A stretch of 64,000 nucleotides of DNA, taken from Bacillota bacterium. Lineage in GTDB: Bacteria > Bacillota > UBA4882 > JBLNCG01. The notes beneath the pieces are model-generated. The model was not told the origin of the DNA and did no database searches. It saw only the letters and a program-made list of their open reading frames with translations. The stretch is from contig JBLNCG010000019.1 of NCBI GenBank assembly GCA_050260475.1, forward strand, positions 10,166 to 74,165. The letters are read 5' to 3'. Shown here piece by piece: positions 2,426-62,975 of the stretch (within the stretch, counting starts at the first letter, position 1; each line of letters starts with the position of its first letter). Made by a program: the position numbers and the translations under genes.

Positions 2426-2466
2426 CTATATGACGATTTGCCGGAAGGTTGAAAGGAAGATGATAT

Positions 2467-4254
2467 ATGTCATTTAAGCGCACGAAAAGACTCCGGGAGC
2501 AAGCCGGAGACCAAGGAGATAATCTGTTTTCAGGGCGCAAATCGCTGGAAAGAGCTTTTGACGAAGCGGTGGAATTGCACCGCCGGGGGGTGGCCGGGGA
2601 TAAAGAGGCAGTCAGCAAGGCTTTTGCTCTTTTCGAAAAAATACATGAGGCGGCGCCCAAAAACAACCTGGCGGCCGCTTACTACGGCAGCTCTCTCGCC
2701 CTTCAGGGAAGGGACGCCGTAGACCCGAACGAGAGATTTCAAAAAGCCATCCGGGGTTTAAAATACCTGGACGCGGCAGCGGAGAATGAACCGGAAAACA
2801 TTCAGATACGGACTCTACGCGGATATGTATGCAGCCGCCTCCCCGAGGCTTTTTTTCACCGCACGCATACGGCGATAGAGGATTTCGGTTCCCTGGTTTC
2901 CCGCTTTGAGAAAGATCCGGGCCTGTTCGCGAAAGATTTCTATTGCCAGTTGCTTTACGATCTCGGAGCAGCATACAAGAACCTCAACCGCTGCGATGAA
3001 GCCGAACAAACATGGAAAAAATTGCTTTCCGTCACCGGCGGCTCTAAATATTTGAACCTGTTGCGCCAGGAAGGCTGCTCCCCCCCAAAGAACCCCGGAA
3101 GTTCATCAAGCGCCAATCCATCCGATGAAACAAGGCGCCTGGAAGAGGGGAGGAAACTTCACCGTGCAGCACTGAACTGCCGAAAAGGCGCCGCCCAAAG
3201 CGCATACGATTTTTTCACGAAGGCTCTGGATGAAACGCCGGGCCATCCGCTTTACTCCGCCTACCAGGCGGACTGCCTGTCCATGATCGGTCGGGATGCC
3301 GAGGATCCCGGGATGATGTTCGGCAACGCCATCAAAGCCATGAAAGTGCTGGATAATGCCGTAAACAACAATCCGGACAACTTTGAAATACGCTTGTTAC
3401 GCGCCAACCACAGCTTTCGGCTGCCGGAAGCCTTTTTCCGCAGGACCGCCACAGCTATCAGCGATTATGAGTATCTAACCGGCAGGTATGAAACAGATCC
3501 CTCAAGTTTCCCGGTTCAGGAATATTGGCGGTTGCTTTATAACCTGGGCGAGGCTTACCTCCGTCTGGGCCTTTCCACGGAAAGCTCTTCCGTCTGGAAA
3601 AAACTGCTTGAACTTAAACCGGATCCGGAATATAAGGATGCGGTGGAAAAACAGATGGATGCCGGTCTTCCGGACCGGGTAAAACACGTTTCCTTGCATG
3701 ACAAAGACGCATATTACCGGGAAGCGGTGCGCCTTCATGACCTGGCGGTCAACGGGCGTCCGGGGGCGGCCAAATCCGCCCTGGAATTGTGGGAAAAGGC
3801 ATTCAAAGCCGATCCCGAGAACGCCCTGGCCGAAGCCTATTACGGAAGCAGCCTGGCCTTATGCGGCCGCAACTCTACCGAACCCAACCGTCTTTTTTCG
3901 GATACCATCAAGGGGTTGAAGCATATCAACCGGGCAGCGGGGAAAGACTGGAAAAATCCTCAAATCCGCTTGCTCCGGGCCTATCTCACCTTCTCTTTGC
4001 CCGAATCCTTTTTCCATATGACAGAACGGGCCGTCAAGGATTTCAGGTATTTGAAATCAGCATATGAGCAGGATACCTCCCTATTCCCGGCCGGAGTATA
4101 TTACCGGATTTTATACGACCTGGGGCGGGCATACCGCCGTCTGAACCAGGATGCGCTGGCTGATAAAGTCTGGAAGAAATTATCCAAGGAACATCCGGAT
4201 TTATACCGGGAACTGGTTGAAGGAACCATCCCCCCGGAGGAGGAGAGCCGATGA
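2467..4254 (+). CDS. Helical-repeat (TPR-like) protein with three internal repeats of about 170 aa
   Basis: 595 aa. The repeats share AxAYYGSSLAL-GR----PN--F---IKGLK-L-------P-N-QIR-LR-Y----LPE-FFH-T--A--DF-YL---YE-D---FP---Y-LLY-LG-AY--L-------WKKL. RBS AAAGGAAG lies 6 nt upstream. The stop overlaps the next start (ATGA). Confidence 0.7.
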   Translation: MSFKRTKRLREQAGDQGDNLFSGRKSLERAFDEAVELHRRGVAGDKEAVSKAFALFEKIHEAAPKNNLAAAYYGSSLALQGRDAVDPNERFQKAIRGLKYLDAAAENEPENIQIRTLRGYVCSRLPEAFFHRTHTAIEDFGSLVSRFEKDPGLFAKDFYCQLLYDLGAAYKNLNRCDEAEQTWKKLLSVTGGSKYLNLLRQEGCSPPKNPGSSSSANPSDETRRLEEGRKLHRAALNCRKGAAQSAYDFFTKALDETPGHPLYSAYQADCLSMIGRDAEDPGMMFGNAIKAMKVLDNAVNNNPDNFEIRLLRANHSFRLPEAFFRRTATAISDYEYLTGRYETDPSSFPVQEYWRLLYNLGEAYLRLGLSTESSSVWKKLLELKPDPEYKDAVEKQMDAGLPDRVKHVSLHDKDAYYREAVRLHDLAVNGRPGAAKSALELWEKAFKADPENALAEAYYGSSLALCGRNSTEPNRLFSDTIKGLKHINRAAGKDWKNPQIRLLRAYLTFSLPESFFHMTERAVKDFRYLKSAYEQDTSLFPAGVYYRILYDLGRAYRRLNQDALADKVWKKLSKEHPDLYRELVEGTIPPEEESR

Positions 4255-6384: not shown

Positions 6385-7640
6385 ATTCCGGCGAAATGAA
6401 ACTCAAACTCTTGAACCGGACCCTTAAAAGGTGTGAAAAATCCGAATTCTACCGGGGCAGGCCGGGGGGGAAATCCTTGAAATCTTTGGATGATTTGAAA
6501 GGCATCCCGCTGACCACCAAGGATGATCTGCGCAACAACTCCCCGTACGGTTTGATCTGCGCGCCCCGCCGGGCGCTCGTGCAATACCACGAATCCTTCG
6601 GCACCACGGGAGTCCCGGTTTCCATATGGCTGACCAGGGAGGATCTGCGCCGTAACGCCAAAATAATATCATACTGGGGCGTGGGTTTCAACGCGGACGA
6701 TACAGTCTTAATCCGCTATCCTTATGCCATTTCAGGCGTCGCCCACATGGTGCACGCCGGAGCGCAACGTAAAAAGGCCTGCGTTATTCCGGCCAGCTCC
6801 CGTACCGCAGTATGCCCTTTTCCCCGTATCGTAAGCCTAATGCGCAAGCTGGGCGTAACCGTCCTGGCCGGATTGCCCCTGCAGGCGCTGCTCATCGCGG
6901 AAACCGCCGAGTTGATGGGTTACCGGCCCGGAAAGGATTTTCCGATGCTGCGCGCCCTCTGTACTGCCGGTGAACCGCTTTCGCCCTGGCGCCGGAAATT
7001 GCTGGAGGATATCTGGGGTGTCCCGGTGTTCGACAATTACGGCCTGACGGAAACCGGACCGCTTGCTCTGGATTGTGAATTCGGACACTTGCATCCCCTG
7101 GAGGATGATTATATCTTTGAAATCCTGCGCGATGACTTTCAAACACCGTCGGCGGAAAACGAATGCGGATATCTTGTCATCACCACATTATGCAGGGAGG
7201 GAACCCCCTTGCTGAGATATCTCACCGGAGACCTAGTAAGGATGGTCGAACAGGATTGCCCCTGCGGATCCCGCCTGACTATGGAAGTACACGGCCGTTC
7301 CGAGCAGCGCATATCCGCGGGTCCGGCAATCCTTGACATATGGGACCTCGATGAAATCGTTTCGTTTCTTCCATATCGCCGCTTCTGGATAGCGGCGCCC
7401 GCTCAAGACGGAATCAAAATAGTCCTTGAAGAAGAGCCGGAATCCGGCCCTCTGCATTATAAAAAAGCTGATTCGTTGGAAACCCGTTTCGGCGTCCGGG
7501 TGCACCTAGAAATCGTACCGAAAGGAACGCTTTTTAACCGCAGCAAACTCCTGGAAACGGCCATAATAGGTAAACCTGCTTATATCGTATCCCCGGAAGA
7601 GCTGGCCGAAAAAAAGCAACCGGCTGCATCCGTCCTCTAA
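6381..7640 (+). CDS. PaaK / F390-synthetase-family adenylate-forming enzyme (paralogue 2)
   Basis: 419 aa with motif SFGTTGVP and the context KGIPLTTKDDLR typical of the PaaK N-domain. It overlaps the amidohydrolase stop (ATGA). Confidence 0.7.
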   Translation: MNSGEMKLKLLNRTLKRCEKSEFYRGRPGGKSLKSLDDLKGIPLTTKDDLRNNSPYGLICAPRRALVQYHESFGTTGVPVSIWLTREDLRRNAKIISYWGVGFNADDTVLIRYPYAISGVAHMVHAGAQRKKACVIPASSRTAVCPFPRIVSLMRKLGVTVLAGLPLQALLIAETAELMGYRPGKDFPMLRALCTAGEPLSPWRRKLLEDIWGVPVFDNYGLTETGPLALDCEFGHLHPLEDDYIFEILRDDFQTPSAENECGYLVITTLCREGTPLLRYLTGDLVRMVEQDCPCGSRLTMEVHGRSEQRISAGPAILDIWDLDEIVSFLPYRRFWIAAPAQDGIKIVLEEEPESGPLHYKKADSLETRFGVRVHLEIVPKGTLFNRSKLLETAIIGKPAYIVSPEELAEKKQPAASVL

Positions 7641-7646
7641 ATTAAA

Positions 7647-7757
7647 GCAATTTGCGTTGTTATGATAATTTTACGTCCTGCCAAAATATCGATAGCCTAA
7701 TGGTAACCGTACACTTATTTAGCGGCAAGACCTTGAATTAAAATAAACGCAATTGCC
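7647..7757 (+). repeat. Intergenic palindromic repeat, copy E3 (full length)
   Basis: GCAATTTGCGTTGTTATGATAATTTTACGTCCTGCCAAAATATCGATAGCCTAATGGTAACCGTACAC ... AATAAACGCAATTGCC. Confidence 0.9.
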
Positions 7758-15310: not shown

Positions 15311-15502
15311 TTATCAGTCACTCCTTTTTGCATTCATCCTTCCAGGGGATTGCAAATCAATAAAAACAATATATCATGAAGAAGAGGCGCAAGTCAACCT
15401 GCGCAGGTTATGATGCTTCCTTCTTTATCCAGACTTCTCCATAGGGATAGCACACTTCACACTTTACAGTTCATGCTTTTAAAAGAACATATCACAGCCC
15501 AT

Positions 15503-23377: not shown

Positions 23378-23439
23378 TTTGGTAAGCTATTCTATCTTCT
23401 GTCTTCTGTATTTATCTCCCGTGCTCTGTATTCTTTTCT

Positions 23440-24669: not shown

Positions 24670-24786
24670 GCAATTTGCGTTGCTATGATAATTCAACGTC
24701 ATGCCACCAAATATCGATAGCCTACATGGCAGCCATACGCTATATTTAACGGCACGACCTTGAATTAAGGTAACAACGCAATTACC
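24670..24786 (+). repeat. Intergenic palindromic repeat, copy E5 (full length, diverged termini)
   Basis: GCAATTTGCGTTGCTATGATAATTCAACGTCATGCCACCAAATATCGATAGCCTACATGGCAGCCATACGC ... GGTAACAACGCAATTACC. Confidence 0.9.
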
Positions 24787-35099: not shown

Positions 35100-35216
35100 G
35101 GGTAATTGCGTTGTTGCCTTAATTCAAGGTCTTGCCACTAAATATAGTATATGGCTGCCATTAGGCTATCGATATTTAGCGGAAGACGTAAAATTATCAT
35201 AACAATGCAAATTGCT
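35100..35216 (-). repeat. Intergenic palindromic repeat, copy E7 (full length, inverted)
   Basis: Its reverse complement matches the consensus: GAGCAATTTGCATTGTTATGATAATTTTACGTCTTCCGCTAAATATCGATAGCCTAATGGCAGCCATATAC ... GGCAACAACGCAATTACC. Confidence 0.9.
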
Positions 35217-41935: not shown

Positions 41936-43954
41936 TCACTTCGGGATCGGTTCGGCGTTTTTACCGCCGGACAAAACGTTTGCCTCTTTCAGCCGGGCTT
42001 TATTGATGCTGAGGCTCAGCCTTTTTTGCTGCGGTTCGCTTTTTAACACCATCACCGCCACTCCCTGATCAAGACGCAAAACATCATCAGGTTTATGCAC
42101 TCTTTCATCAGCGAGTTCGGAAATATGGACCAAACCTTCCACGCCATCCTCCACCTGGATGAACGCCCCGTAGGGGGCAAATCCGGTCACTTTGCCCTTT
42201 ACAATCGTCCCTTCGGGGTATCGATCACCTATTCCCGCCCAGGGGTCCGGAAGAAGCTGCTTCATGCTGAGGGAGATTTTCCGTCCGGCGGCGTCCAGGC
42301 TTTTTACTCCCACCTGAACTTCATCGCCGACATTCAACTTCTCGGAGGGGTGTTTGATCTTGTCCCAGGCGATCTCGGAGATATGCAGGAGCCCATCCAC
42401 GCCCGATGCCAGGCTGATAAAAGCGCCGAAGGGAGTAATCCGCTCCACCGTGCCGTGGAATATATCACCCTCCCGGACGCTGTCCCAAAACTTTTTTTCT
42501 TCCTTCCTGCGGTCGTCCTCTTTTACCGCGCGGTGCGATACGGTCATCTTTTCCTTGTGCGGATTGATTTCGATGATTTTTACCGGCAGGATCCGGCCCT
42601 CCATATCCGGGAGATCCCCGGTTCTCCCGGCGGTGGCGTGGGATGCGGGCATAAAGGCTTCCATGCCCTCCACCTCCATGATCAAGCCTCCCTTGACCGC
42701 CTGCTTCACCTTTCCTTCAAGGACCAATCCTTCCTGAAAAATCCGTTGCAAATCCTCCCATTTTTTCATGGAAATCAGCGGCAGCATTGAAAGACGGATT
42801 TGCTCACCGTCTTTGGCGTCCTTCACCACTACATCGATCTCGTCGCCGATTTGGTAAATCTCCGCAAGCGGCGTCTCTGGACTCAAGCCCGTCTCTTCCC
42901 TGGGGATCTCCAGATCGTTTTTACCTCCCAGGGATACATAGAGCGCATCCGGCCGGACGTGGACCACCAAGGCTCGCAATTTTTGCCCGGGCATGTAATG
43001 TGCCTTGGATACGCGCAACAGATCTTCCATGGACATGTCTTCCTCTTCCGGTTCGGGGGAAACTGCGGCGTCATTCTTTTCAACAGGGCGTTCCGGTTCC
43101 GGGGGGACAGTTTGCTCCGCATCTTCTCCCTTAAGCCTGTTCAACACTTCGTCGATCTGGGTCTGAGGCGTGGATGCCCCCGCGGTAATGCCGACCGTTC
43201 CGAAAGGGGACAGATCGATCATTTCCAGTTCGGACGGATCTTCTATGTGAAAAGTGGGGATTCCCGTTCCGCCTGAAAGTTTGGCCAACTGGGTGGTATT
43301 GGCGCTGTTCTTCCCTCCCAAAACCAGCATGGCATCCACCTGCTTCGCCAGGTCCAGGGTGCCCTTTTGCCTTTCCTCCGTAGCCTGGCAAATGGTCTTC
43401 AAGATCCTGATATCCTTTCCCTTGCGTATCAACACGGAAACCGCCTTCATAAAATTCTCCTCGGTCTGGGTGGTCTGGGAAATAATCCCGATTTTGGCAG
43501 GCAAGGATAATTCTCCGGCTTCCTCCGGGTTTTGCACTACGTAGGCGCGATCTTCTATGACCGCGGTAATGGCTTTAACCTCTGCGTGGTTTTTTTCACC
43601 CACCACCACCACGGCATAACCTTCTCTATCTAGCTCCGCCGCGAGATCCTGGGCTTTCTTCACATTGGGGCAGGTAGTGTCGATTATCGTAAGACCGCGG
43701 GATTTCGCCTCTTCGATATCCTGCGGAGACACTCCGTGGCATCGCAGGAGCAGCACCCCGCCGTCCACGTCAGCCAGTTTTTCCGCCACGGTCAAACCCC
43801 GGCCGGCCAATTCCCGCACCACCCGGGGATTATGAATCAGCGGGCCGTACGAATAGATCGGTCGTTCCGAACGGAGCAAACACTCCTCCGCCATGGCCAG
43901 GGCCCTTTTCACTCCGAAACAAACCCCCGCCCGGGGGCAGACTATAAATTCCAT
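41936..43954 (-). CDS. ispH: Bifunctional 4-hydroxy-3-methylbut-2-enyl diphosphate reductase / ribosomal-protein-S1-domain protein
   Basis: IspH fold at the N-terminus (CPRAGVCFGVKRA ... HNPRVV) followed by several S1 RNA-binding repeats. Confidence 0.9.
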   Translation of the reverse strand: MEFIVCPRAGVCFGVKRALAMAEECLLRSERPIYSYGPLIHNPRVVRELAGRGLTVAEKLADVDGGVLLLRCHGVSPQDIEEAKSRGLTIIDTTCPNVKKAQDLAAELDREGYAVVVVGEKNHAEVKAITAVIEDRAYVVQNPEEAGELSLPAKIGIISQTTQTEENFMKAVSVLIRKGKDIRILKTICQATEERQKGTLDLAKQVDAMLVLGGKNSANTTQLAKLSGGTGIPTFHIEDPSELEMIDLSPFGTVGITAGASTPQTQIDEVLNRLKGEDAEQTVPPEPERPVEKNDAAVSPEPEEEDMSMEDLLRVSKAHYMPGQKLRALVVHVRPDALYVSLGGKNDLEIPREETGLSPETPLAEIYQIGDEIDVVVKDAKDGEQIRLSMLPLISMKKWEDLQRIFQEGLVLEGKVKQAVKGGLIMEVEGMEAFMPASHATAGRTGDLPDMEGRILPVKIIEINPHKEKMTVSHRAVKEDDRRKEEKKFWDSVREGDIFHGTVERITPFGAFISLASGVDGLLHISEIAWDKIKHPSEKLNVGDEVQVGVKSLDAAGRKISLSMKQLLPDPWAGIGDRYPEGTIVKGKVTGFAPYGAFIQVEDGVEGLVHISELADERVHKPDDVLRLDQGVAVMVLKSEPQQKRLSLSINKARLKEANVLSGGKNAEPIPK

Positions 43955-43970: not shown

Positions 43971-44603
43971 TCAATATGCCTTCAATTCCCGGTGCAGCCC
44001 GGCGATGACCTGCATCAGATACTCCGTGGCCGCTTTCACCCTTTGTTTATGATCAGGATAAACGGTTTCCGAAAAAAGTCCGCTCAAACTGAAAGCTTTG
44101 CCGAATTTCAGCCGGTATTCCGGTCTGCAGAATCTGCGCCTTTTAATGTAAACCGCCGTCGGTAGAATCGGAGCGTCTGTCTCCAGGGCGATCAGGGCCG
44201 CCCCCGGCCGGCCTTTCAGAAGCGAATCCGTTTTAGACCTGGTGCCTTCCGGAAACAGGCAAACGGTCTTCCCGTTTCGCACCAGTTTTATAGCTTCCCC
44301 CAGGGCTTTCAAATCCGCGCCGCCCCTGTGCACCGGAAAAGCCCCCCATCCCCGGATAACCGCTCCGAACACCGGGATGCCGAACAGTTCCTTTTTGGCC
44401 ATGAAATGCACTTTAAATTTCAATCCCATGGAGGTCCCGATAAAGGGCGGATCCCAGAAATTGATATGGTTGGAGGCGGTAATAAACCGCGAATCCACGG
44501 GAAGGTTTTCCCTCCCCCAGATCCGGATCCGGAAAAAAGTCCGCAGATAAAACTTGCAGATGACAAAACCTATTCTATAGAGCATGGCGGACGTCCTCCA
44601 CAA
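43971..44603 (-). CDS. plsC: 1-acyl-sn-glycerol-3-phosphate acyltransferase
   Basis: Acyltransferase motifs NHINFWDP and FPEGTRS. Confidence 0.85.
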   Translation of the reverse strand: MWRTSAMLYRIGFVICKFYLRTFFRIRIWGRENLPVDSRFITASNHINFWDPPFIGTSMGLKFKVHFMAKKELFGIPVFGAVIRGWGAFPVHRGGADLKALGEAIKLVRNGKTVCLFPEGTRSKTDSLLKGRPGAALIALETDAPILPTAVYIKRRRFCRPEYRLKFGKAFSLSGLFSETVYPDHKQRVKAATEYLMQVIAGLHRELKAY

Positions 44604-45789
44604 TCGCCAGAATTTTATCCCTGACCTGTTCGATGGCGAGCTTCGTGGAATCTACCAACACCGCATCCCGAGCCTGTTTAAGCGGGGACACCTCCCGTTC
44701 GCTGTCGGTCTTGTCCCGATCCTTGATCTGCGCAAGAAGCTCCCTGAAGGAAATTCGGACGCCCTTCGCCGCAAGTTCCTTCTGCCTGCGCCGGGTTCGC
44801 TCCTTTAAAGTGGCGGTGAGGAAGATCTTTGCTTCCGCCTCCGGCAAAACCACCGTTCCGATGTCGCGCCCGTCCATGACCACGCCGCCCCCGGCGGCCA
44901 TAATCCGCTGCTGCGCCACCAGCGCTTCCCTGACCCCCTTGATGACTCCTATCTTTGAAGCGCCCCTGGCGATATCTACATCGCGAATAGCCTCGCTTAC
45001 ATCTTCGCCGTCCAGGCAGATTCGCGTCTGCCACCCGCCGTCCGGAGTCCGCGCAAGTCCTTTCAAGGCAAGGCGCGCCTCCCTGGCTATTTTTGTGACG
45101 CCCGCGCCGTCCCCCCAATCCACATTCTCCCGTGCGGCTTTTAAGGCCACCGCGCGGTACATGGCGCCGGTATCGATATATATATAACCCAGGGCTTCCG
45201 CCAGGAGCCTGGCGATGGTACTTTTACCCGAACCGGCGGGCCCGTCGATGGCTATGTTGATTTTACGCGTTTCCTTAACGCTCGAAACCAATGCGCTTAT
45301 ATTCTCCCTTCTTGTAAAATCCGCCGGATTGTCATAAGCCGCAAGCATACCCTGTTCATCGGGTGTCAAAGCTTTTTTCCCTTTCAGGATCCACTTCATC
45401 GGCAACATCAGCACCTTGAAAAAGGGCGGCAGCCTGCGGTAGTCAAAGCCGCCACGCAGATAGAAAAACCGGATTTGCTCCCGCTGCCCGGGTGTGAAAT
45501 TCGCCTTTAAGATCTCACTGACGGTCTCTTCCCTGGCAGGCGACGCGCCCGTGGCAAAGACGACGACTTTCTTGCCTTCAAGCCTGCGGAGGTTCCGGGT
45601 AACCAATTCGATTCCGTTAATCCGTGAAGCGTAAAGACCTCCTCCGTAAATCACCGTGTCATAACTCTCCAGGGTACCGGCGGAAACCTTGGAAGCCTCG
45701 AAAATATCGGCCGCCAGCTCTTCCGCAATCCATTGAGCGTATTTTGCCGTAAAACCGGTTTTGGATTTGTACGCCACTATTGTTCTCAT
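44575..45789 (-). CDS. cmk: Flavodoxin-like domain fused to cytidylate kinase
   Basis: Residues 1 to about 180 are flavodoxin-like (MRTIVAYKSKTGFTAKYAQWIAEEL). The C-terminal 225 aa are Cmk (IAIDGPAGSGKST ... DGRDIGTVV). It is a single uninterrupted ORF. Confidence 0.75.
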   Translation of the reverse strand: MRTIVAYKSKTGFTAKYAQWIAEELAADIFEASKVSAGTLESYDTVIYGGGLYASRINGIELVTRNLRRLEGKKVVVFATGASPAREETVSEILKANFTPGQREQIRFFYLRGGFDYRRLPPFFKVLMLPMKWILKGKKALTPDEQGMLAAYDNPADFTRRENISALVSSVKETRKINIAIDGPAGSGKSTIARLLAEALGYIYIDTGAMYRAVALKAARENVDWGDGAGVTKIAREARLALKGLARTPDGGWQTRICLDGEDVSEAIRDVDIARGASKIGVIKGVREALVAQQRIMAAGGGVVMDGRDIGTVVLPEAEAKIFLTATLKERTRRRQKELAAKGVRISFRELLAQIKDRDKTDSEREVSPLKQARDAVLVDSTKLAIEQVRDKILAIVEDVRHAL

Positions 45790-45912: not shown

Positions 45913-47019
45913 TTATTTTCGCTGGTAAACCACAAATCCCTTTTCCCTCAACACCTTCGTGGCCTGCTCCATGGCCTGCTCGTTTTCCAGGGCCAGGCGG
46001 AGGGTGCCGCCCTCTCCCTCGCGCACGCGTAAAATCTCGATGTCCTTGATATTGATGGAGGCTTGGGCGAGCCATGTCAAAACCTCGTGGATCGCTCCGG
46101 GCCTGTCCTCTACGACCACCACGATTTCCGCGAGCGGCGCCAGGAAGCCCTTGCTGCGCTGCGGGATCTGCTCCCGGACCCTTCTGGCACAAGCCAGCTT
46201 TTCCACCAGACGCAGGGCATCGGCTTTTTCCAATATATCCTGCAAATCCCGGATCTCCGATAGATAAGCCTCCAGGACCCGGCATACCTGGATCCTGTTC
46301 GCCATGAAAATATCCCTCCAGAGTTCCGGATCGCCCGACGCCACCCGCGTGGTGTCCCTGAAACCGCCGGCGGCAAGATTTAAAAGCCCTGGGCTTTTCT
46401 GGTCCAGCCCCGCCACGGCATTGACCAGGGCCACAGCGGTTAAATGCGGGAGATGGCTCACGGCGCCGACAACATAGTCGTGAACTTCCGGGGAGAGCTC
46501 CCAGACATGCGCTCCGGTGGCTTCCATCATATCCTGTACGGTATTCCGGATTGAAGAAGGAGTAGGTGCGGCGGGGGTAAGGCAATAAACCGCGTTCTGG
46601 AAAAGAAACGGATCCGCGGCGGCAATGCCTTGCCGTTCACTGCCTGTCATGGGGTGACCCCCGATAAAATACTGCCCGGGATGCAGCAAGGGGGTGATTT
46701 CTCTGATGACGCCGGATTTCACGCTTCCGACATCCGTGATAATCAGGGGATCCTTTTTGAGGTTCAAAATCTTCCGTACGATATCGGTTATGGCGCTTAC
46801 GGGCGTGGCGACAACCACTATTTCTGCGCCGGTTAAGCTTTCTAACATCTCCGTAGCGCCGATCTGAATGGCTTCTTTTTGTACAGCCTCCTTGACGATT
46901 TCCCCGTCGCGGTCAACCCCGGTTACCCGGTATTTCCCGCTTCGCACAAGGGCCATCCCCAGCGAACCGCCGATCAGCCCAAGCCCGATGATTGTAACGT
47001 TTATTTTTTCCGTCCCCAT
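45913..47019 (-). CDS. tyrA: Prephenate dehydrogenase with a C-terminal ACT domain
   Basis: Rossmann motif IIGLGLIGGS. ACT-like C-terminus. The start could be 47019 or 47028. Confidence 0.85.
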   Translation of the reverse strand: MGTEKINVTIIGLGLIGGSLGMALVRSGKYRVTGVDRDGEIVKEAVQKEAIQIGATEMLESLTGAEIVVVATPVSAITDIVRKILNLKKDPLIITDVGSVKSGVIREITPLLHPGQYFIGGHPMTGSERQGIAAADPFLFQNAVYCLTPAAPTPSSIRNTVQDMMEATGAHVWELSPEVHDYVVGAVSHLPHLTAVALVNAVAGLDQKSPGLLNLAAGGFRDTTRVASGDPELWRDIFMANRIQVCRVLEAYLSEIRDLQDILEKADALRLVEKLACARRVREQIPQRSKGFLAPLAEIVVVVEDRPGAIHEVLTWLAQASINIKDIEILRVREGEGGTLRLALENEQAMEQATKVLREKGFVVYQRK

Positions 47020-47094
47020 CAGCACCATCCTGCCGTCTTTCCGTCATCAATCACCAATTATCATAAGCTTTGATAATTGTTCGCCGATAATGGT

Positions 47095-48192
47095 TCATTG
47101 GATTACTGCCGCCAGTTCCCTTAAAAACCTCTCATTCTGCTCAAGGTTGCCGACGGTCACCCGGATGCATTTGGGAAGGCCGTAGATATCGCCGGTGCGG
47201 ATAATCACGCCGCGTTTTTGGAGGGCAGCGAAAACCTCCCGGCAGTCCCTGGGCAGTTCCACCAGAATGAAATTGGTTTCGGTGGGCCAGTATTTAAGGC
47301 CCATTTTTTCAAAGGCCCGGTATAACTGATTTTTTCCTGCGCCGTTCAATGCCCTGCTTTTCTCCACATGGCTGGAACCCAAGCTCGCCCGGGCGGCTTC
47401 CTGAGCTACCAGGTTGACGTTGAAAGGTTCCCTGACCTTGCCCAGCATGGCGATTAATCCTTCCGGGGCAACGCCGTAGCCGACGCGCAGTCCGGCCAGG
47501 CCGTAAATCTTTGAAAATGTGCGCAGTACGATGACATTCCGCCCCTCGCGGAAATAATTCATCCCATCCGGATAATCCCCGGCTTCAGCGTACTCGAAAT
47601 AAGCCTCGTCAAAGGCTACGATGATATCTCCGGGAAGCCCGTCCAGGAAATCATCCACTTCCGCTTTTGTAACATACGTGCCGGTAGGGTTATTGGGGTT
47701 GCATAAAAATATGATTTTCGTCCTGCGGGAAACCGCCGCCTTCATGGCAGGCAGGTCATGACGCATATCGCGGCAAGGGATGCTTTTTACCTGGGCCCCC
47801 ATCAGGCGCGCAGAAAATTCATATTCGCTGAAAGTGGGATCCGCCACGATGATCTCGCTGTCAGGCGTTAAAAAAGCATGACCAAGCAACTCAAGGATCT
47901 CATCCGAGCCGTTTCCCACCATGATATTTTTCGCTTCCACCCCCAGCCTCTCCGCCAGGGCGTTTTTTAAATAATAGACATTTCCATCCGGGTATAACGA
48001 AACCTTGTCCGCAGCCTTTTTAATGGCTTCCCGGGCTTCCGGACAAGGTCCCAAGGGATTTTCGTTGGAGGCGAGTTTAATCACATCGGTGATCCCAAGT
48101 TCCCTTTGTACTTCTTCAATGGGCTTACCCGGTACATAAGGTTTGATCGCCGCAAGCTGAGGGCGGGCAATTTGTTGATAATCCAACTTCAT
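47095..48192 (-). CDS. hisC: Histidinol-phosphate / aromatic aminotransferase
   Basis: PLP class I/II aminotransferase (NPNNPTG ... SKIYGLAGLRVGY). ATG at 48192 with AAAGGAGA upstream. The ORF-track 5' extension is rejected. Confidence 0.85.
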   Translation of the reverse strand: MKLDYQQIARPQLAAIKPYVPGKPIEEVQRELGITDVIKLASNENPLGPCPEAREAIKKAADKVSLYPDGNVYYLKNALAERLGVEAKNIMVGNGSDEILELLGHAFLTPDSEIIVADPTFSEYEFSARLMGAQVKSIPCRDMRHDLPAMKAAVSRRTKIIFLCNPNNPTGTYVTKAEVDDFLDGLPGDIIVAFDEAYFEYAEAGDYPDGMNYFREGRNVIVLRTFSKIYGLAGLRVGYGVAPEGLIAMLGKVREPFNVNLVAQEAARASLGSSHVEKSRALNGAGKNQLYRAFEKMGLKYWPTETNFILVELPRDCREVFAALQKRGVIIRTGDIYGLPKCIRVTVGNLEQNERFLRELAAVIQ

Positions 48193-48560
48193 TCTCCTTT
48201 CCGCGCCAGATCGGGGCGCAAGGCCACCGCTTCGCGCAGGTAAATGTGGCGGATTTCGGTTTTGTTCATCCTGGTGTTTACATGCATGAGAACCCTGATG
48301 CATTTTCGCAGGCCGTCCGGTTTGGCGATCTCCTGGGCGCCCAAGAGCGGAACATCGGACAATCCTATTTCCCTGGCCGCGGCTGCCGGAAACCCCGCAT
48401 TCAAATCAGGGGTCATGGTGAAGATAATGCTGATGATATCATCCACAGCCAGCCGGTTTTCCGCCATGATGCGTTTTAGCAGCTCCATGGTGGCGCTCAA
48501 TATTTCCGCGTTTGAATTGTGTCTTGCCGTTGTTGCCCCTCGAATTCCCAAAACCGCCAT
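48189..48560 (-). CDS. aroH: Chorismate mutase, AroH class
   Basis: MAVLGIRGATTA ... is typical of the B. subtilis-type monofunctional chorismate mutase. GGAGG lies 5 nt upstream. The stop overlaps the hisC start. Confidence 0.8.
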   Translation of the reverse strand: MAVLGIRGATTARHNSNAEILSATMELLKRIMAENRLAVDDIISIIFTMTPDLNAGFPAAAAREIGLSDVPLLGAQEIAKPDGLRKCIRVLMHVNTRMNKTEIRHIYLREAVALRPDLARKGE

Positions 48561-48576
48561 ACCGTCCTCCAATATT

Positions 48577-48604
48577 CAGTGACCAGTAACCAGTAATCAG
48601 TAAG
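48577..48604 (-). promoter_or_regulatory. Four tandem heptads (plus strand CAGTGAC CAGTAAC CAGTAAT CAGTAAG; mRNA NUUACUG x4) 6 nt upstream of the aroH Shine-Dalgarno
   Basis: Read directly from the sequence. They are partly complementary to the NAG array 30 nt upstream. Confidence 0.6.
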
Positions 48605-48635
48605 ATAAATACAATACTCAAATTATTATTAATCG

Positions 48636-48673
48636 CTGCAGACTGATTGCTGATCACTATTCACTGCACTCTA
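48636..48673 (-). promoter_or_regulatory. Putative HutP-type RNA-binding site: six NAG triplets with exact 4-nt spacers (mRNA UAG-agug-CAG-ugaa-UAG-ugau-CAG-caau-CAG-ucug-CAG)
   Basis: Plus strand has CTG/CTA triplets at 48636, 48643, 48650, 48657, 48664 and 48671, each separated by 4 nt. The first UAG is the stop codon of the HutP-family gene. Confidence 0.6.
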
Positions 48674-49090
48674 TCTGATCGCCCTGTGCCCCATGCCGAC
48701 GGCCACTTCATCCAGATGGAGCAAGCCGATGCCGAAAAAGATCGCCACGCTCACATGATCCCCCCGCCGGGCGATACCGATCTTGCCTCCCACATTCAAG
48801 CCCATGGCTTTTGGCAGGATTGCCGCAAGCGCTTCATGAGTGGCTCCGGCCACCGCTCCTTCATCCACATGGTTGTTTTCTATAAGAAACTCCCGCTTGG
48901 CAGCTACAACCGCGCGCTCCACGATTTTTTTCACGGAGTCGTTGAACTCCCCGCCGTAATCCACCCCGGCGGCCCTGATCTCTTTCCTTTTCAACTGCTC
49001 CTTCAGTAAACTCTCCTCTTCCCGCGTGCCGGAAACGGCCATCATAATCGCGGCCTTGGCCACTTCCTTGCTTCCCTTGGACGGTTCCAT
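48671..49090 (-). CDS. HutP-family RNA-binding regulatory protein
   Basis: 139 aa. The C-terminus FFGIGLLHLDEVAVGMGHRAI aligns with HutP YGTIGAPIKGLEHETFGVGINHI, and the central GATHEALAA aligns with HATMEAL. Confidence 0.7.
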   Translation of the reverse strand: MEPSKGSKEVAKAAIMMAVSGTREEESLLKEQLKRKEIRAAGVDYGGEFNDSVKKIVERAVVAAKREFLIENNHVDEGAVAGATHEALAAILPKAMGLNVGGKIGIARRGDHVSVAIFFGIGLLHLDEVAVGMGHRAIR

Positions 49091-49130
49091 CTTTAAAACC
49101 TCGTTTGTTTTTTTATTTCAGCCAGAAAGA

Positions 49131-49304
49131 GCAATTTGCGTTGTAACTATATCCTGATTCCGTGACATCCTTTGACGACCAGGCAAAATCACGGGAGCTT
49201 GCCTATAATGGGAAAAACGAATCAAAACTCGCAATTGCCCGGAGCAGTGGGAATAAATTTAGAATATTTTATCACATTAACGCTCATCTGGCAAGGCAAC
49301 GCAA
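49131..49304 (+). repeat. Chimeric or nested repeat copy E8: canonical termini (GCAATTTGCGTTGTAACTATAT ... CGCAATTGCC, 49131-49239) with an unrelated 65-nt interior, then a partial inverted terminus (GGCAAGGCAACGCAAATTTC, 49285-49304)
   Basis: The termini are conserved while the interior (TTGACG ... GCCTATAATGGG) differs from every other copy. Confidence 0.7.
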
Positions 49305-49339
49305 ATTTCTCGCCGATACTTCACTCCGCCTGATACAAA

Positions 49340-49367
49340 CCCCGCCGATACGTCCGGCGGGGTTTTT
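49340..49367. terminator. Intrinsic terminator (CCCCGCCG-ATACGT-CGGCGGGG followed by T5); the T-run is best on the plus strand
   Basis: 8-bp GC stem. Lies between minus-strand cupin and E8. Confidence 0.6.
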
Positions 49368-49381
49368 CCGTCTTCCCTGAT

Positions 49382-49648
49382 TCAACCAAAACGATAATAT
49401 TTGCGCACTTTCTCATGAACCGTCCAGACACAGGAAAGGCCGGCAGGGAAAGTAACCAGATCCCCCTTGCCGAAGGACACTTCCTGATCCGCGGTTTTCA
49501 CCGTTACCCTGCCTTCCAGGAGATAACAGGTCTCCTTGTCGTCGTAATGCCAGTCGAAAGTGGACGGTTCGCATTCCCACATTCCCCAAACGGAGACATT
49601 CATCTTTTCAAGCTGCTCACCGGTTGGTTTTTCCACGGTAATCGGCAT
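49382..49648 (-). CDS. Cupin-domain small protein
   Basis: 88 aa with a cupin beta-barrel signature (GRVTVKTADQEVSFGKGDLVTFPAG). Confidence 0.6.
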   Translation of the reverse strand: MPITVEKPTGEQLEKMNVSVWGMWECEPSTFDWHYDDKETCYLLEGRVTVKTADQEVSFGKGDLVTFPAGLSCVWTVHEKVRKYYRFG

Positions 49649-49652
49649 GAAA

Positions 49653-52600
49653 TCACCCCTTTTTAGCTATTTTAATCGCGACCTTATGGCCGTTGACATC
49701 CCATTCCTCAGAGCCGGCGCCCGGTTGTTTCCGGCGCATCAGTTCCACGGCAAGCGTTTCCTCGACTATATAGCTTCGGAAAGCTTCCACAGCCGCCGCT
49801 ACTTCATCATCCGCGTGATAATCCACATCGATGCGGTCTGTCAACTCTAGGCCGGCGTTTTTCCGCATATTCTGGACCTTGGAGACCATCTCCCGCGCCA
49901 GGCCTTCCTGCAGTAATTCAGGAGTCAACCCGGTATCAAGGATCACGTAGTTGCCCCGTGCCATCTCCACCGCAAAGCCTTGCTTATCCTCCACGCGGAC
50001 CTCCAGATCCTCCTCAGTCAGGGAAACATGCGTGCCGTCCACGGTCAGCGCAAGTACGCCGGATTGCCGGAGCGACTTGACATATTCCGCGGCGTCGCCC
50101 ACGGCAAGCTCCGCGCCGATCCCTTTCATAAGCTTACCGTACTTGGGTCCCAACACCGGAAAGTTCGGCTTCACCGTATAAGAAACGTATTCATCGAAAT
50201 TCTTCACATATTGCAGCGCCTTGACGTTTAATTCTTCCTTCACCAGCCCTTCCACACTTTCCAGGACAGGACGGTGCTTTTCATCCACTCTCAAGGCGGG
50301 CAGCGGCTGTCTGACCTTGATCCGCACCTTGTTCCGCGCCGCGCGCCCCAGCGAGACAAGATCGATCACCAGGCCCATATGACCCTCCAGTTCCGCATCG
50401 ATGGATTTTTCATCCGCCTCCGGATACAGTTCGATATGCACGGAAGCGAGTTTATCTTTGCCCTGCTTGAGGTTTTGATAAATATCCTCCGCCAGGAAAG
50501 GAGCAAACGGGGCCATAAGCTTGGCAACAGCCAGCAGTACTTCCCACAGGGTGCGGTAAACGGCCTTTTTACTCCGGTTCATTTCGGAAGCCCAAAAACG
50601 TTCACGTGTCCGCCGCACGTACCAGTTGGAGACCTCATCCACCACGAAGGACTGGATGGCCCGCACGGTATGCGTCATTTCATATTCTTCCATGTTTGTC
50701 CGGACTTCCCGGATCAAGGAATTAAGCCGAGAGATGATCCAGCGATCGATCTCCTCCCTTTCCGCCGCCGGTATGTCGTAGCTTTCGGGATCCGCGCCGT
50801 CGATATTGGCGTAAAGAGTAAAAAAGGCGTATACATTCTGCAGCGTTCCTAAAAACTTGGAGGAGACCTCTTTTACTCCGTCCTCATCGAAACGGGTCGG
50901 CGTCCAGGGCGGCGAGACCGCCATCAGGTACCACCGGGAGGCATCCGCGCCGTATTTCTCCATCAATTGCCAGGGATCCACGGTGTTGCCCCTGGATTTG
51001 GACATCTTCAGCCCGTTCTTGTCCAGGACCAAATCGTTTACGAGTACGGATTTAAATGACGATCTGCCCGAAATAAAGGCGGAAATGGCAAGCAGGGAGT
51101 AAAACCATCCCCTTGTCTGGTCGATGCCCTCGCAGATGAAATCCGCCGGGAAAAGCCGGTCGAAATCGGCCTTGTGCTCAAAAGGATAGTGCCATTGCCC
51201 GTAAGGCATGGAACCCGAATCGAACCAGCAGTCGATAACCTCGGCGGTTCTGGTCATCTTGCCGCCGCATGCGCATTTGAGATGGACCTCGTCGATATAC
51301 GGCCGGTGCAGTTCGATGGTTTCCTGATCAATCTTTTCCACGGCCCGCTCCGCCAGTTCCCGCCTGGACCCGATGGAGGCAAGTCCGCTGCAGACATCGC
51401 ATTTCCAGATATTCAGCGGCGTACCCCAATAGCGGTCCCTTGACAGGGACCAGTCGATCAGGTTTTCCAGCCAGTTGCCGAACCGGCCTTTTCCAACATG
51501 TTCGGGATACCATTTGATCTCGTTGTTGCATGCGATCAGACGGTCCTTATATTTGGTGGTGGCAATATACCAAGATTTCCGGCCGTAATAAAGCAAGGGG
51601 GTGTCGCAGCGCCAACAATACGGGTATGAATGAGTCATGCGCTCCCTGGAAAACAACTTACCCTGTTCCTTAAGGTACCGTGTGATGTCCGGGTCCGCTT
51701 CGCGCACGAAACGGCCCGTCCAGGGACGGACATCCGGGGTAAATTTTCCTTCTTTATCCACGGGCTGTAAAAAAGGCAATCCGTGCTTTTGTCCGAGCTG
51801 GTAATCGTCTTCGCCGAAAGCCGGGGCGATATGCACGATTCCGGTGCCGTCATCCGTAGAGACGAAGTCCGCTCCATAGACTTTGAAAGCGTTCTTCGCA
51901 TCGGCTTTTACAAAGGGCATCAACTGCTCATATGGGATCCCTTCCAGGGCGGCCCCTTTCATCTCCTCCAGGATTTCCGCATCCTTCCCCAGGACCGCCT
52001 CCACGCGCTCCCGCACCAGGATGTAAACGTTCCCGTCGCCGGTCTTGCGCGCTTTTACATACGTATGAGCGGGATTTACCGCCAGAGCCACGTTGGAAGG
52101 CAGGGTCCACGGGGTGGTGGTCCATACCAGGAAATATTCCCTTTCCCTGCCTGTCTTTTTCATGCGCACGTAAATGGAATCGATGGTTTCATCCTTGTAA
52201 CCCAGCGAGACCTCGTGCGAAGCCAACGGAGTCCCGCAGCGGGCGCAGTACGGCATGATCTTGTGGCCTTCATAAATCAACCCCTCGTCAAAGTATTTTT
52301 TCAGGATCCACCAGATCGTCTCAATATAATCATTATGAAGCGTAATGTAGGGATGATCCATATCCAGCCAGTAGGCGATGCGCTCCGTCATCCTGCGCCA
52401 TTCCTTTTCATAAGCAAATACGGACTCGCGGCATTTTTTATTGAAGGCCTCCATACCGTAATCCTCGATCTGCTGTTTGGAGGAAAGGCCGAGTTGCTTT
52501 TCCACCTCGATCTCCACCGGCAGTCCGTGGGTATCCCAGCCCGCCTTGCGATCCACCTGGAAACCCTGCATGGTCTTGTAACGGCAAACGGTATCCTTCA

Positions 52601-52796
52601 ATGTCCGCGACAAAACATGATGGATCCCCGGTTTTCCGTTGGCGGTGGGCGGCCCTTCATAAAACACAAAGCGCGGGCAGCCTTCCCTTGCGGTCACGCT
52701 TAAATCGGGGATCTTTTCGGAAAGCCAATATTGCAGGATCTCCTCTTCTTTTTTTGCCAGCGGGGATCTGGTATCGACTTCATGAAACTTTCCCAT
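49653..52796 (-). CDS. ileS: Isoleucine--tRNA ligase, type 2
   Basis: 1047 aa with HIGH-type motif PPTANGKPGIHH and KMSKS. Confidence 0.95.
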   Translation of the reverse strand: MGKFHEVDTRSPLAKKEEEILQYWLSEKIPDLSVTAREGCPRFVFYEGPPTANGKPGIHHVLSRTLKDTVCRYKTMQGFQVDRKAGWDTHGLPVEIEVEKQLGLSSKQQIEDYGMEAFNKKCRESVFAYEKEWRRMTERIAYWLDMDHPYITLHNDYIETIWWILKKYFDEGLIYEGHKIMPYCARCGTPLASHEVSLGYKDETIDSIYVRMKKTGREREYFLVWTTTPWTLPSNVALAVNPAHTYVKARKTGDGNVYILVRERVEAVLGKDAEILEEMKGAALEGIPYEQLMPFVKADAKNAFKVYGADFVSTDDGTGIVHIAPAFGEDDYQLGQKHGLPFLQPVDKEGKFTPDVRPWTGRFVREADPDITRYLKEQGKLFSRERMTHSYPYCWRCDTPLLYYGRKSWYIATTKYKDRLIACNNEIKWYPEHVGKGRFGNWLENLIDWSLSRDRYWGTPLNIWKCDVCSGLASIGSRRELAERAVEKIDQETIELHRPYIDEVHLKCACGGKMTRTAEVIDCWFDSGSMPYGQWHYPFEHKADFDRLFPADFICEGIDQTRGWFYSLLAISAFISGRSSFKSVLVNDLVLDKNGLKMSKSRGNTVDPWQLMEKYGADASRWYLMAVSPPWTPTRFDEDGVKEVSSKFLGTLQNVYAFFTLYANIDGADPESYDIPAAEREEIDRWIISRLNSLIREVRTNMEEYEMTHTVRAIQSFVVDEVSNWYVRRTRERFWASEMNRSKKAVYRTLWEVLLAVAKLMAPFAPFLAEDIYQNLKQGKDKLASVHIELYPEADEKSIDAELEGHMGLVIDLVSLGRAARNKVRIKVRQPLPALRVDEKHRPVLESVEGLVKEELNVKALQYVKNFDEYVSYTVKPNFPVLGPKYGKLMKGIGAELAVGDAAEYVKSLRQSGVLALTVDGTHVSLTEEDLEVRVEDKQGFAVEMARGNYVILDTGLTPELLQEGLAREMVSKVQNMRKNAGLELTDRIDVDYHADDEVAAAVEAFRSYIVEETLAVELMRRKQPGAGSEEWDVNGHKVAIKIAKKG

Positions 52797-53153
52797 GGTA
52801 TCAACTCCTTTTCTTACTGATGCAAATTTGAATACAGGAGACAGGAGACAGAAGTCGGAATATATTAGAGCAATCTGCTTTATTTAAGAACTCCGGAACA
52901 AAAAAAATAAAAAACCGCCCCAAAGGGACGGTTTGTCTTCCGCGGTACCACCCAATTTGCCCGGCCCATACGGGGCCGGCCACTTTTCTCCGGTAACGGC
53001 GGACACCGGCCGCACCTACTTGCGGTTCGGGCGGCTGCTCCAGGATGATCTTCGGCTGAACCCAAGGCGCCGGCTTTCACCTTCCCCGGCTCTCTTCAAG
53101 CCTTCGCAAATCAGCTTACTCTTCCTATCAATGCCTTTGTAAGAGGTTTAATT
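52797..53153 (-). promoter_or_regulatory. T-box riboswitch leader of ileS
   Basis: Minus-strand sense contains AAUUGGGUGGUACCGCGG (plus 52941-52959). A terminator CCGUCCC/GGGGCGG followed by UUUUUUAUUUUUUU lies at plus 52901-52934. Stem-I has the AGAGAG motif and the candidate specifier region is GAUCAUC. Confidence 0.8.
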
Positions 53154-53268: not shown

Positions 53269-53384
53269 GCAATTTGCGTTGTTATGACAATTTTACGTCT
53301 TGCCGCTAAATATCGATAGCCTAATGGTAGCCATACACTATATTTAGCGGCAAGACCTTGAATTAAGGTAACAACACAATTGCC
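53269..53384 (+). repeat. Intergenic palindromic repeat, copy E9 (full length)
   Basis: GCAATTTGCGTTGTTATGACAATTTTACGTCTTGCCGCTAAATATCGATAGCCTAATGGTAGCCATACAC ... GGTAACAACACAATTGCC. Confidence 0.9.
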
Positions 53385-55895: not shown

Positions 55896-56013
55896 GCAAT
55901 TTGCGTTGTTAATAATGATCACGTCTTGCACTAACTAAATATCGATAGCCTAATGGCAGCCATACATTATATTTAGTGGCAAGACCTTGAATCAAGGTAA
56001 CAACGCAATTGCC
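55896..56013 (+). repeat. Intergenic palindromic repeat, copy E10 (full length), between hydG and hydF
   Basis: GCAATTTGCGTTGTTAATAATGATCACGTCTTGCACTAACTAAATATCGATAGCCTAATGGCAGCCATACAT ... GGTAACAACGCAATTGCC. Confidence 0.9.
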
Positions 56014-62888: not shown

Positions 62889-62975
62889 GCAATTTGCGTT
62901 GTAACTATATTTTTACGTCTTACCATTCACAACGCTTCTAAATATTGATAGCCTAATGATAGCCGCACGCCATAT
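62889..62975 (+). repeat. Truncated copy of the palindromic repeat (E12; left arm and core only)
   Basis: GCAATTTGCGTTGTAACTATATTTTTACGTCTTACCATTCACAACGCTTCTAAATATTGATAGCCTAATGATAGCCGCACGCCATATTTG. The right arm is missing. Confidence 0.75.

Follow-up and report, generated by a model that had tools for sequence, protein, structure and literature searches.

A HutP-like gene heads a chorismate mutase operon on the minus strand of a stretch of DNA of 64,000 nucleotides (nt) from a Bacillota bacterium (called the window below), and its protein appears to belong to a clade of repressors of aromatic amino acid synthesis. The members of this clade have the HutP fold, and they would act in the manner of TRAP, gated by a ligand. 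The related loci compared were 80 from genomes and five from closer relatives in metagenomes, and their conserved RNA signature is a set of tandem GGNAG units in an 8-nt register. A different feature had been singled out in an earlier note on this DNA, namely six NAG triplets that start at the hutP stop codon and pair with four complementary heptads in front of aroH. Our preferred reading, which we hold to be probable but well short of certain, is that the protein is a repressor of the TRAP type and that the six-NAG hairpin is not its operator.

In the proposed mechanism the ligand-loaded protein would bind GGNAG repeats. The bound protein would block ribosome binding at the starts of aroH and of the gene for 3-deoxy-D-arabinoheptulosonate 7-phosphate (DAHP) synthase, and in leaders it would sequester the 5' strand of an antiterminator, so that a terminator forms. 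The outcome would be feedback repression of aromatic amino acid synthesis resembling that by TRAP. The ligand would probably be an aromatic end product and not histidine with Mg. In the window the canonical leader seems to have been replaced by a repeat of about 110 nt, and the best signature matches on which the protein might act are on the ribosome-binding sites of aroH and tyrA.

The HutP-like protein and its operon

The open reading frame in the window encodes a genuine member of the HutP family that is distant from the characterized protein. It scores 163.4 bits with the Pfam HutP profile (PF09021, cut-off 25), with residues 10-136 on profile positions 1-128, while HutP of Bacillus subtilis itself scores 111 bits. 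An AlphaFold model of the monomer has four strands and four helices (predicted local distance difference test, pLDDT, 87; predicted template modeling score, pTM, 0.83); in the HutP fold, helices pack against an antiparallel sheet of four strands. Foldseek places only HutP structures among its ten best PDB matches (probability 1.0, template modeling scores of 0.67-0.77, about 20% identity). Profile and fold therefore bear out the identification of a 139-amino-acid (aa) HutP homologue that was made from the sequence. Searches of PDB sequences with phmmer and with a profile of the clade both miss B. subtilis HutP, even at E<=10, so the link to it comes only from Pfam and the fold comparison. The clade is compact and strongly conserved, with 325 representatives at the 50% clustering level. 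There are 3547 homologues at E<=1e-5, the top ones with 65-80% identity, and a collection of 5.8 billion proteins contains no relative closer than 80%.

The residues that we take to form the L-histidine/Mg2+ site of B. subtilis HutP are His73, His77, His138, Glu81, Arg88, and Arg98, and the window protein lacks this set as a whole. According to both hhalign and MAFFT, His73 and His77 correspond to Gly78 and Gly82, invariant glycines in an EGAxAGAT motif, while Arg98 corresponds to Leu98 and Arg88 lies inside an insertion found only in Bacillus. Glu81 and His138 have conserved counterparts in Glu86 and His135. The alignment has only about 20% identity, at which single columns are uncertain. If the presumed roles of these residues are right, the histidine/Mg site has been lost and the ligand differs from histidine, which fits the earlier suggestion of a different ligand.

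The distribution of gene neighbors shows that association with chorismate mutase is the rule in this clade and not a peculiarity of the window. A scan of one genome per species gave the 80 genome loci, which come from Syntrophomonas, Syntrophothermus, Neomoorella, Desulfitobacterium, Pelotomaculum, Dethiobacter, Candidatus Formimonas, Acididesulfobacillus, Desulforadius, Gelria, and many metagenome-assembled genomes. The aroH gene is immediately 3' of hutP in 75 of these loci and in all five closer metagenome relatives (75-80% identity), three of which have overlapping stop and start codons. Overall, aroH is directly downstream in 80 of the 85 related loci. In anaerobic Bacillota, a gene of this clade nearly always opens a hutP-aroH operon. 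Depending on the locus it is followed by hisC, a DAHP synthase gene, tyrA, or cmk. The spacer between hutP and aroH is -4 to 40 nt in most loci and 110 nt in the window.

The window operon consists of hutP, aroH, a hisC-type aminotransferase gene, and tyrA, all in the same orientation. The hutHUIG genes, which HutP would be expected to precede, are not what follows here. There is no promoter-like or terminator-like site between hutP and aroH, and a scan of 47900-49700 gave no terminator-like sites. The proposals that hutP forms one operon with the three downstream genes, and that the operon serves aromatic biosynthesis instead of histidine utilization, are thus supported by the gene arrangement in the window and in the relatives. 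No DAHP synthase gene is present in the 64-kb window.

Tandem GGNAG sites in related loci

The RNA signature conserved in the clade is not the NAG triplet with 4-nt spacers. It consists of two to four tandem GGNAG units in an 8-nt register, as in GGUAG GAC GGUAG UGC GGCAG and GGCAG GAC GGUAG UGC GGCAG. In many relatives the hutP leader has a promoter, two to four of these units, about 15-25 nt of further sequence, and a short terminator of the form GCACUCC-loop-GGAGUGC-U6. Such a terminator is found in about 35 of the 82 leaders scanned. Where the spacer permits, the units cover the Shine-Dalgarno sequence and start of aroH (L017, L025, L029, L040, L041, L043, L046, L052, and L060). They also overlap the start, or form an extra leader, of a DAHP synthase gene 2.5-3 kb downstream.

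The signature is specific in strand, period, and position. With a pattern of three GGNAG units at period 8 and at least 11 of 12 matches, 621 kb of sequence contained 48 matches on the coding strand (41 clusters) and 1 on the opposite strand. Periods of 6, 7, 9, and 10 gave 5-15 matches each, and twenty first-order Markov resamples gave 0-6, with about 3 expected. Thirteen matches are in hutP 5' leaders and about 12 are at the ribosome-binding sites or leaders of DAHP synthase genes, while others are at aroH ribosome-binding sites. At a threshold of at least 10 of 12, sites occur in the start regions of 9 of 26 DAHP synthase genes and 8 of 79 aroH genes, compared with 6 of 194 control genes. 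In addition, DAHP synthase leaders outside the training set are recovered at E=1e-6 to 1e-3 by a covariance model built from 15 hutP leaders (R1), and every one of them is on the coding strand. The leaders of eight relatives had no Rfam match at E<=1.

The leader terminator GCACUCC / GGAGUGC is conserved in sequence as well as shape (L002, L003, L005, L007, L018, L019, L021, L053, L067, L081, and others), and it often carries a UAG, placed within the loop or immediately 5' to the stem. This conservation of sequence hints that the terminator may be recognized by more than RNA polymerase. In about 11 of 19 leaders, the minimum free energy (MFE) structure of the nascent RNA has the leader repeats base-paired to the terminator's 5' half.

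Candidate sites in the window

The four-gene operon of the window is enriched in candidate sites (Table 1). A site matrix was built from the sites of relatives only (training median 25.6 bits), and about 128,000 window positions were ranked with it. The matches over the aroH and tyrA starts are second and fourth in this ranking. Part of the aroH candidate, GGAGGACGGUA, is shared with the aroH site of one relative, GGAGGACGGUAGGAUAUG (L060). Tandem NAG-type repeats over the ribosome-binding sites of pathway genes, as in TRAP systems, are therefore seen at aroH and the DAHP synthase gene in relatives and at aroH and tyrA here. When 52 gene starts were scored, three exceeded 4.5 bits: that of a gene at 2467 for a 595-aa repeat protein, that of tyrA (the second highest), and that of hutP. 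The aroH start was left out of the 52 and scores 16.4 bits; with it added, three of the four outliers belong to the four-gene operon (hypergeometric p~7e-4).

The match within hutP codons 2-11 is a weak candidate for an autoregulatory site. Codon 7 (49072-49070) encodes the invariant serine of an N-terminal GSKEV motif and is AGY in 82 of 86 genes, compared with 43% AGY elsewhere in hutP. With AGY, the mRNA retains a GGNAG unit. No such bias is seen in the lysine codon, and codon-class inertia may explain the serine bias as well as selection on the RNA would.

A dispersed repeat occupies the place where relatives carry the GGNAG/terminator leader. It is a divergent copy of a palindromic repeat of about 110 nt, GGCAATTGCG...GTTACAACGCAAATTGC. 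The R1 model has no match at E<=1 in the window, and the window hutP leader has no significant fold (z +0.59). The end motif of the repeat occurs nine times in the window, where 0.14 would be expected. In general form the repeat resembles a miniature inverted-repeat transposable element, GGCAATTGCGTTGTTACC...GATAACAACGCAAATTGC, and its nine copies in 64 kb are mostly intergenic and mostly in one orientation. The repeat ends are at 115-131, 2408-2424, 7647-7663, 24670-24686, 35199-35215, 49131-49147, 53269-53285, 55896-55912, and 62889-62905, and full copies are about 110-115 nt (for example, 53269-53379 and 24670-24781). No Rfam match to the repeat was found in the stretch scanned.

Table 1. 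Positions of the operon genes, candidate sites, and repeat features in the window, and of TRAP-type arrays in related loci.
Feature	Position	Strand	Remarks
hutP-like gene, 139 aa	48671..49090	minus	operon gene 1; Pfam HutP PF09021 E=3.8e-48
aroH, monofunctional AroH-type chorismate mutase	48189..48560	minus	Pfam CM_1 E=4.9e-45; TIGR01796 equivalog 138 bits, cut-off 82
hisC-type class I/II aminotransferase	47095..48303	minus	TIGR01141 351 bits, cut-off 276.55
tyrA, prephenate dehydrogenase with C-terminal ACT domain	45913..47028	minus	PDH_N, PDH_C, ACT
Candidate operator on aroH Shine-Dalgarno and start	48548..48571	minus	UGGAG GAC GGUAU GGC GGUUU; rank 2, 16.4 bits
Candidate operator on tyrA Shine-Dalgarno and start	47019..47042	minus	GGAAA GAC GGCAG GAU GGUGC; rank 4, 13.0 bits
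GGNAG match in hutP codons 2-11	49057..49086	minus	GGAAG CAA GGAAG TGG CCAAG; rank 5, 11.0 bits
Six NAG triplets, 7-nt register	48636..48673	minus	starts at hutP stop codon
Four tandem heptads	48576..48603	minus	TTACTGA/TTACTGG/TTACTGG/TCACTGA; complement of CAG-N4 array
Intercistronic hairpin	48577..48666	minus	5' arm 48666-48643 (NAG units 2-5), AT-rich loop, 3' arm 48600-48577
Divergent copy of dispersed palindromic repeat, ~110 nt	49131..49240	minus	in hutP 5' leader
Promoter-like site TTGCCA-17-TAAAAT	49266..49294	minus	TG extension; 5' of hutP-like gene
Terminator-like hairpin of upstream cupin gene	49370-49335	minus	
TRAP-type arrays in related loci	L028 4892, L039 2389, L053 4768, L055 4926, L063 5252, L069 4931, L071 4930, L073 1481, L075 5329		

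The remaining features of the locus are as follows. The promoter-like site has the arrangement TTGCCTTGCCAG...TGATAAAAT, which is found likewise before hutP in the closest relative (L081). The top NCBIfam match of tyrA is a prephenate dehydrogenase model, at a score under the cut-off of that model. Downstream of tyrA are two fusion genes on the minus strand, one combining a flavodoxin-like domain with cytidylate kinase (44575-45789) and the other combining IspH (LytB) with four S1 domains (41936-43954). A T-box leader (52921-53140, minus strand, 123.8 bits) lies upstream of ileS (49653-52796).

The six-NAG array and the heptad hairpin

The array and the hairpin described in the earlier note are present in the sequence. 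Downstream of the hutP stop codon TAG (48673-48671) the sequence reads agtg-CAG-tgaa-TAG-tgat-CAG-caat-CAG-tctg-CAG, so that six NAG triplets, the stop codon included, have spacers of exactly 4 nt. Tandem Repeats Finder describes the four complementary heptads as a repeat of period 7 with 3.9 copies and 90% matches, and they end 6 nt before the aroH Shine-Dalgarno sequence (GGAGG, 48570-48566; ATG at 48560). As predicted, the two arms form a helix. It has about 24 base pairs, an MFE of -30.1 kcal/mol, and a z-score of -2.67 (4 of 200 shuffles fold equally well), and it recurs in the fold of a longer stretch.

The function ascribed to these features in the earlier note did not hold up. There the six NAG-N4 triplets were the operator, and bound protein would open the helix of array and heptads, switching read-through or aroH translation. 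We regard this as unlikely, in spite of several attractive properties of the array. Its spacing equals that of the B. subtilis HutP site, which has a UAG every 7 nt and three per face. It begins at the regulator's own stop codon, and the complementary heptads end close to the Shine-Dalgarno sequence. The AG is invariant in the six units while the spacers differ. In addition, the genome has no canonical 5' leader, and a replacement operator is conceivable.

The architecture of the array differs from that of the Bacillus hut site to which it had been likened. B. subtilis HutP binds two sets of three NAG triplets with 4-nt spacers that flank a terminator stem, and a linker of 12-20 nt between the sets lets the RNA cross over to the hexamer's other face. 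In the window the six triplets are contiguous, with no linker between two sets and no terminator stem between them. No U-tract follows the hairpin, which continues into AAUAUUGGAGG. A switch based on sequestration of the Shine-Dalgarno sequence was rejected: when the array was forced to be single-stranded, the mean accessibility of the Shine-Dalgarno sequence and AUG was 0.48 versus 0.52, effectively unchanged. In the sites of the clade the register is 8 nt and GG precedes NAG; scored with the matrix of these sites, the array falls below 0. CAG and CUG provide the sole G-C pairs in each heptad, so selection for the helix alone can explain an invariant AG with drifting spacers. No Rfam match at E<=1 was found in the hutP-aroH region of the window.

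The array is also absent from all 85 related loci. The earlier note had proposed a survey of HutP-family genes for NAG-N4 spacing together with aromatic neighbors, and had stated that lack of conservation of the spacing in orthologous leaders would count against the operator. The aromatic neighbors were found, as described above, and the spacing was found in none (0 of 85). Even the closest relative (L081, 80% protein identity) has a hutP-aroH spacer of 57 nt without the array; the two spacers do not align, and a pairwise alignment of them is meaningless. Runs of at least three NAG at period 7, beyond chance, occur in or near the hutP-aroH spacer only in the window, as does a run of six.

Similar runs and hairpins are found in other places. 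A period-7 run of six NAG is nonetheless rare: in 685 kb (both strands of the window and 84 loci), there are three runs of exactly six NAG at period 7 and one of eight, with the window's run included. The remaining runs of at least five are tandem heptanucleotide repeats. The NAG periodicity exceeds what base composition would give by chance, yet it is an automatic product of a degenerate tandem heptad that contains AG. The architecture of the window recurs in operons unrelated to hutP. In L053 (6946-7100), six UAGUUGC units after trpG are followed, beyond a spacer, by complementary GCAACUA units that run up to the trpD Shine-Dalgarno sequence (-80.9 kcal/mol, z -7.1). In L017 (~1780-1960) the region between lrgB and a flavoprotein gene contains a similar hairpin, and there are further inverted heptad arrays in L002 (~6480-6590), L012 (~3500-3590), and L037 (5999-6033 and 1157-1191). 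The unit of these intergenic arrays differs from locus to locus (UAGUUGC, AAGCUAU, GAGCGAC, and others). According to a metagenome scan, inverted arrays of short tandem repeats are generally common.

The window itself has further intergenic heptads at 15451-15473, 23390-23409, and 52834-52851. Those at 23390-23409 read ACAGAAG ACAGAAG AUAGAAU on the minus strand, and those at 52834-52851 read CUGUCUC CUGUCUC and lie in the leader of ileS, past the T-box and before the Shine-Dalgarno sequence.

The array and heptads are most likely a lineage-specific inverted pair of degenerate heptanucleotide repeats, and their hairpin is probably not the operator of the HutP-like protein. The hairpin would close the 110-nt insertion and hold the hutP stop codon near the aroH ribosome-binding site. 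It is most likely a neutral element or one that, by analogy with elements of the repetitive extragenic palindromic (REP) type, may affect mRNA stability or processing. It resembles short tandemly repeated repetitive (STRR) heptanucleotides and intercistronic hairpins of the REP type in that an inverted pair of intergenic tandem 7-nt arrays folds into a long hairpin inside an operon. STRR sequences were defined in heterocystous cyanobacteria. Their dispersal of one unit to many genome sites is not seen here. Each locus has its own unit, the other heptads of the window differ, and no genome-wide family is apparent in the 64 kb of this genome covered.

The hairpin could instead be an element at the DNA level, such as a small inserted repeat, a recombination site, or a protein-binding palindrome, with no role as RNA. 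The genome is rich in dispersed palindromic repeats, one of which has entered the hutP leader, and the unusual length of the hutP-aroH spacer would suit an insertion. We nevertheless consider this explanation very improbable, since the heptad array has no second copy in the window, its arms are made of tandem repeats instead of unique terminal ones, and no promoter-like site lies within the hairpin.

A further possibility combines the repressor with a function for the array. The clade would again be a TRAP analogue for the common pathway and the phenylalanine and tyrosine branches in anaerobic Firmicutes, and in this genome the six-NAG array would be a newly born binding site. Once a mobile repeat had destroyed the ancestral leader, an operator might have arisen by expansion of a short tandem repeat with AG in its unit. 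This combination appears quite unlikely. If it is true, short-repeat hairpins would be a source of new operators for ring proteins that read NAG.

Weighing the evidence

Several observations weigh against a TRAP-like repressor whose operator is the GGNAG site. Against composition-matched shuffles the pairing of leader repeats with the terminator has no advantage (mean z -0.5; for several leaders no helix could be extracted). The leaders therefore do not establish the direction of regulation, and the case for repression comes mainly from the overlap of sites with ribosome-binding sites in a biosynthetic pathway. All of the loci were collected by way of hutP, and the enrichment of sites was judged within those loci only. 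At aroH and at tyrA, several close relatives (L081, L082, L084, L001, and L004) lack a good period-8 site. The window's matches over ribosome-binding sites contain only one or two true NAG apiece and score 13-16 bits compared with the median of 25.6; given this degeneracy, the enrichment in the operon is suggestive and not conclusive. The top match to the matrix in the window (2436-2465, plus strand, 16.4 bits) belongs to an unrelated gene and is either spurious or an additional target. As for the array, its AG is invariant while its spacers have diverged (p~0.02 by a rough estimate) and the stop codon is in register, which leaves room for selection on NAG. Finally, a metagenome scan for GGTAGNNNGGTAGGACGGT gave mostly long perfect GGTAGGAC arrays with no aro genes nearby (76 of 80 loci), and a fit to the regulon was seen only in L128 (before a DAHP synthase gene) and L149 (before aroH). 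The GGNAG motif alone is thus not diagnostic.

Two side observations concern these sequences. The match at 2436-2465, which comes right after one of the dispersed-repeat copies, overlaps the ribosome-binding site of the gene for the 595-aa repeat-rich protein (2467-4254). The metagenome contigs (L086-L165) have long perfect GGTAGGAC octanucleotide arrays, many of them with an inverted GTCCTACC array, and a recurrent element with GGTAGGAC arrays has a central ACTGCGT..CGCAGT hairpin.

The wide occurrence of GGTAGGAC arrays without aro genes would also suit a quite different role for the protein. The HutP-like protein might be a partner or allosteric subunit of AroH and not an RNA-binding regulator, with the GGNAG repeats being unrelated short tandem repeats. 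The near-obligate pairing of the two genes, often with overlapping or closely spaced stop and start codons, is typical of stoichiometric partners, AroH is a trimer while HutP is a hexamer with threefold symmetry, and the histidine/Mg ligand residues have been lost. The properties of the repeats argue against this role. At hutP loci they are strand-specific and position-specific, and, in contrast to slippage arrays, they are conserved between genera as imperfect sites of three units. They are also present at DAHP synthase genes and tyrA, where they would be superfluous for a partner of chorismate mutase. In addition, no genuine fusion of HutP with chorismate mutase was found among the 325 family representatives; the long HutP matches examined consist of incomplete HutP segments attached to unrelated domains or to sequence without an assignment, never to chorismate mutase. 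We judge a role as AroH partner to be very unlikely, and TRAP-like repression through GGNAG sites remains our preferred reading.

Comparison with HutP and TRAP

The clade shares its Pfam family and fold with B. subtilis HutP (PDB 1VEA, 1WPV, 1WMQ, and 3BOY), and in both cases the regulator is the first gene of its operon. Repeated NAG triplets in single-stranded RNA are the cognate site of B. subtilis HutP and the candidate site here. In contrast to the hut operon, which is catabolic, the genes headed by the clade are biosynthetic (aroH, DAHP synthase, and tyrA). The sites also differ, being GGNAG units in an 8-nt register that are often over ribosome-binding sites. Such a position implies repression, the opposite of antitermination by HutP. 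A 2025 review describes HutP solely as the histidine-activated antiterminator of Bacillus hut.

The likeness to TRAP (MtrB) is one of presumed function. TRAP is a ring protein that is loaded with an amino acid and carries out feedback repression of an aromatic pathway through tandem repeats of the (G/U)AG type, and the clade would do the same. In both cases the repeats would be in a 5' leader, competing with a terminator, or over ribosome-binding sites. The two proteins are unrelated in fold and family, since the clade has the HutP fold, and the register is 5-6 nt in TRAP compared with 8 nt and a GG prefix here. TRAP-type arrays (5-10 GAG/UAG, period 5) are present downstream of aroH in nine of the loci (Table 1), and the one in L053 precedes trpE. 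Their presence beside aroH suggests that the two NAG-reading systems are separate and that the pathway is divided between them.

Implications

The six-NAG feature that drew attention to this locus is probably ordinary, and the system around it is probably not. No combination of HutP with chorismate mutase or with aromatic-pathway terms was found in the literature searched, and neither that literature nor Rfam contains a description of a GGNAG system of a HutP clade. What is new here is probably an RNA-binding attenuation protein that combines a new register and new targets with the HutP scaffold and, again probably, has the opposite regulatory sign.

The array also gives reason for caution with other sequences. 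Ordinary tandem repeats can yield a NAG periodicity, and a reading of such a periodicity as a protein-binding site needs comparative support.

This large HutP clade is a better fit to the Pfam profile than B. subtilis HutP and heads chorismate mutase operons, which suggests another role for the family. If the proposed mechanism is true, the clade would provide a second attenuation protein of the TRAP kind that evolved independently and is present in some loci beside TRAP-type arrays. It would also explain how the phenylalanine and tyrosine branches and the common pathway are controlled in Syntrophomonas, Moorella, Desulfitobacterium, and their relatives.

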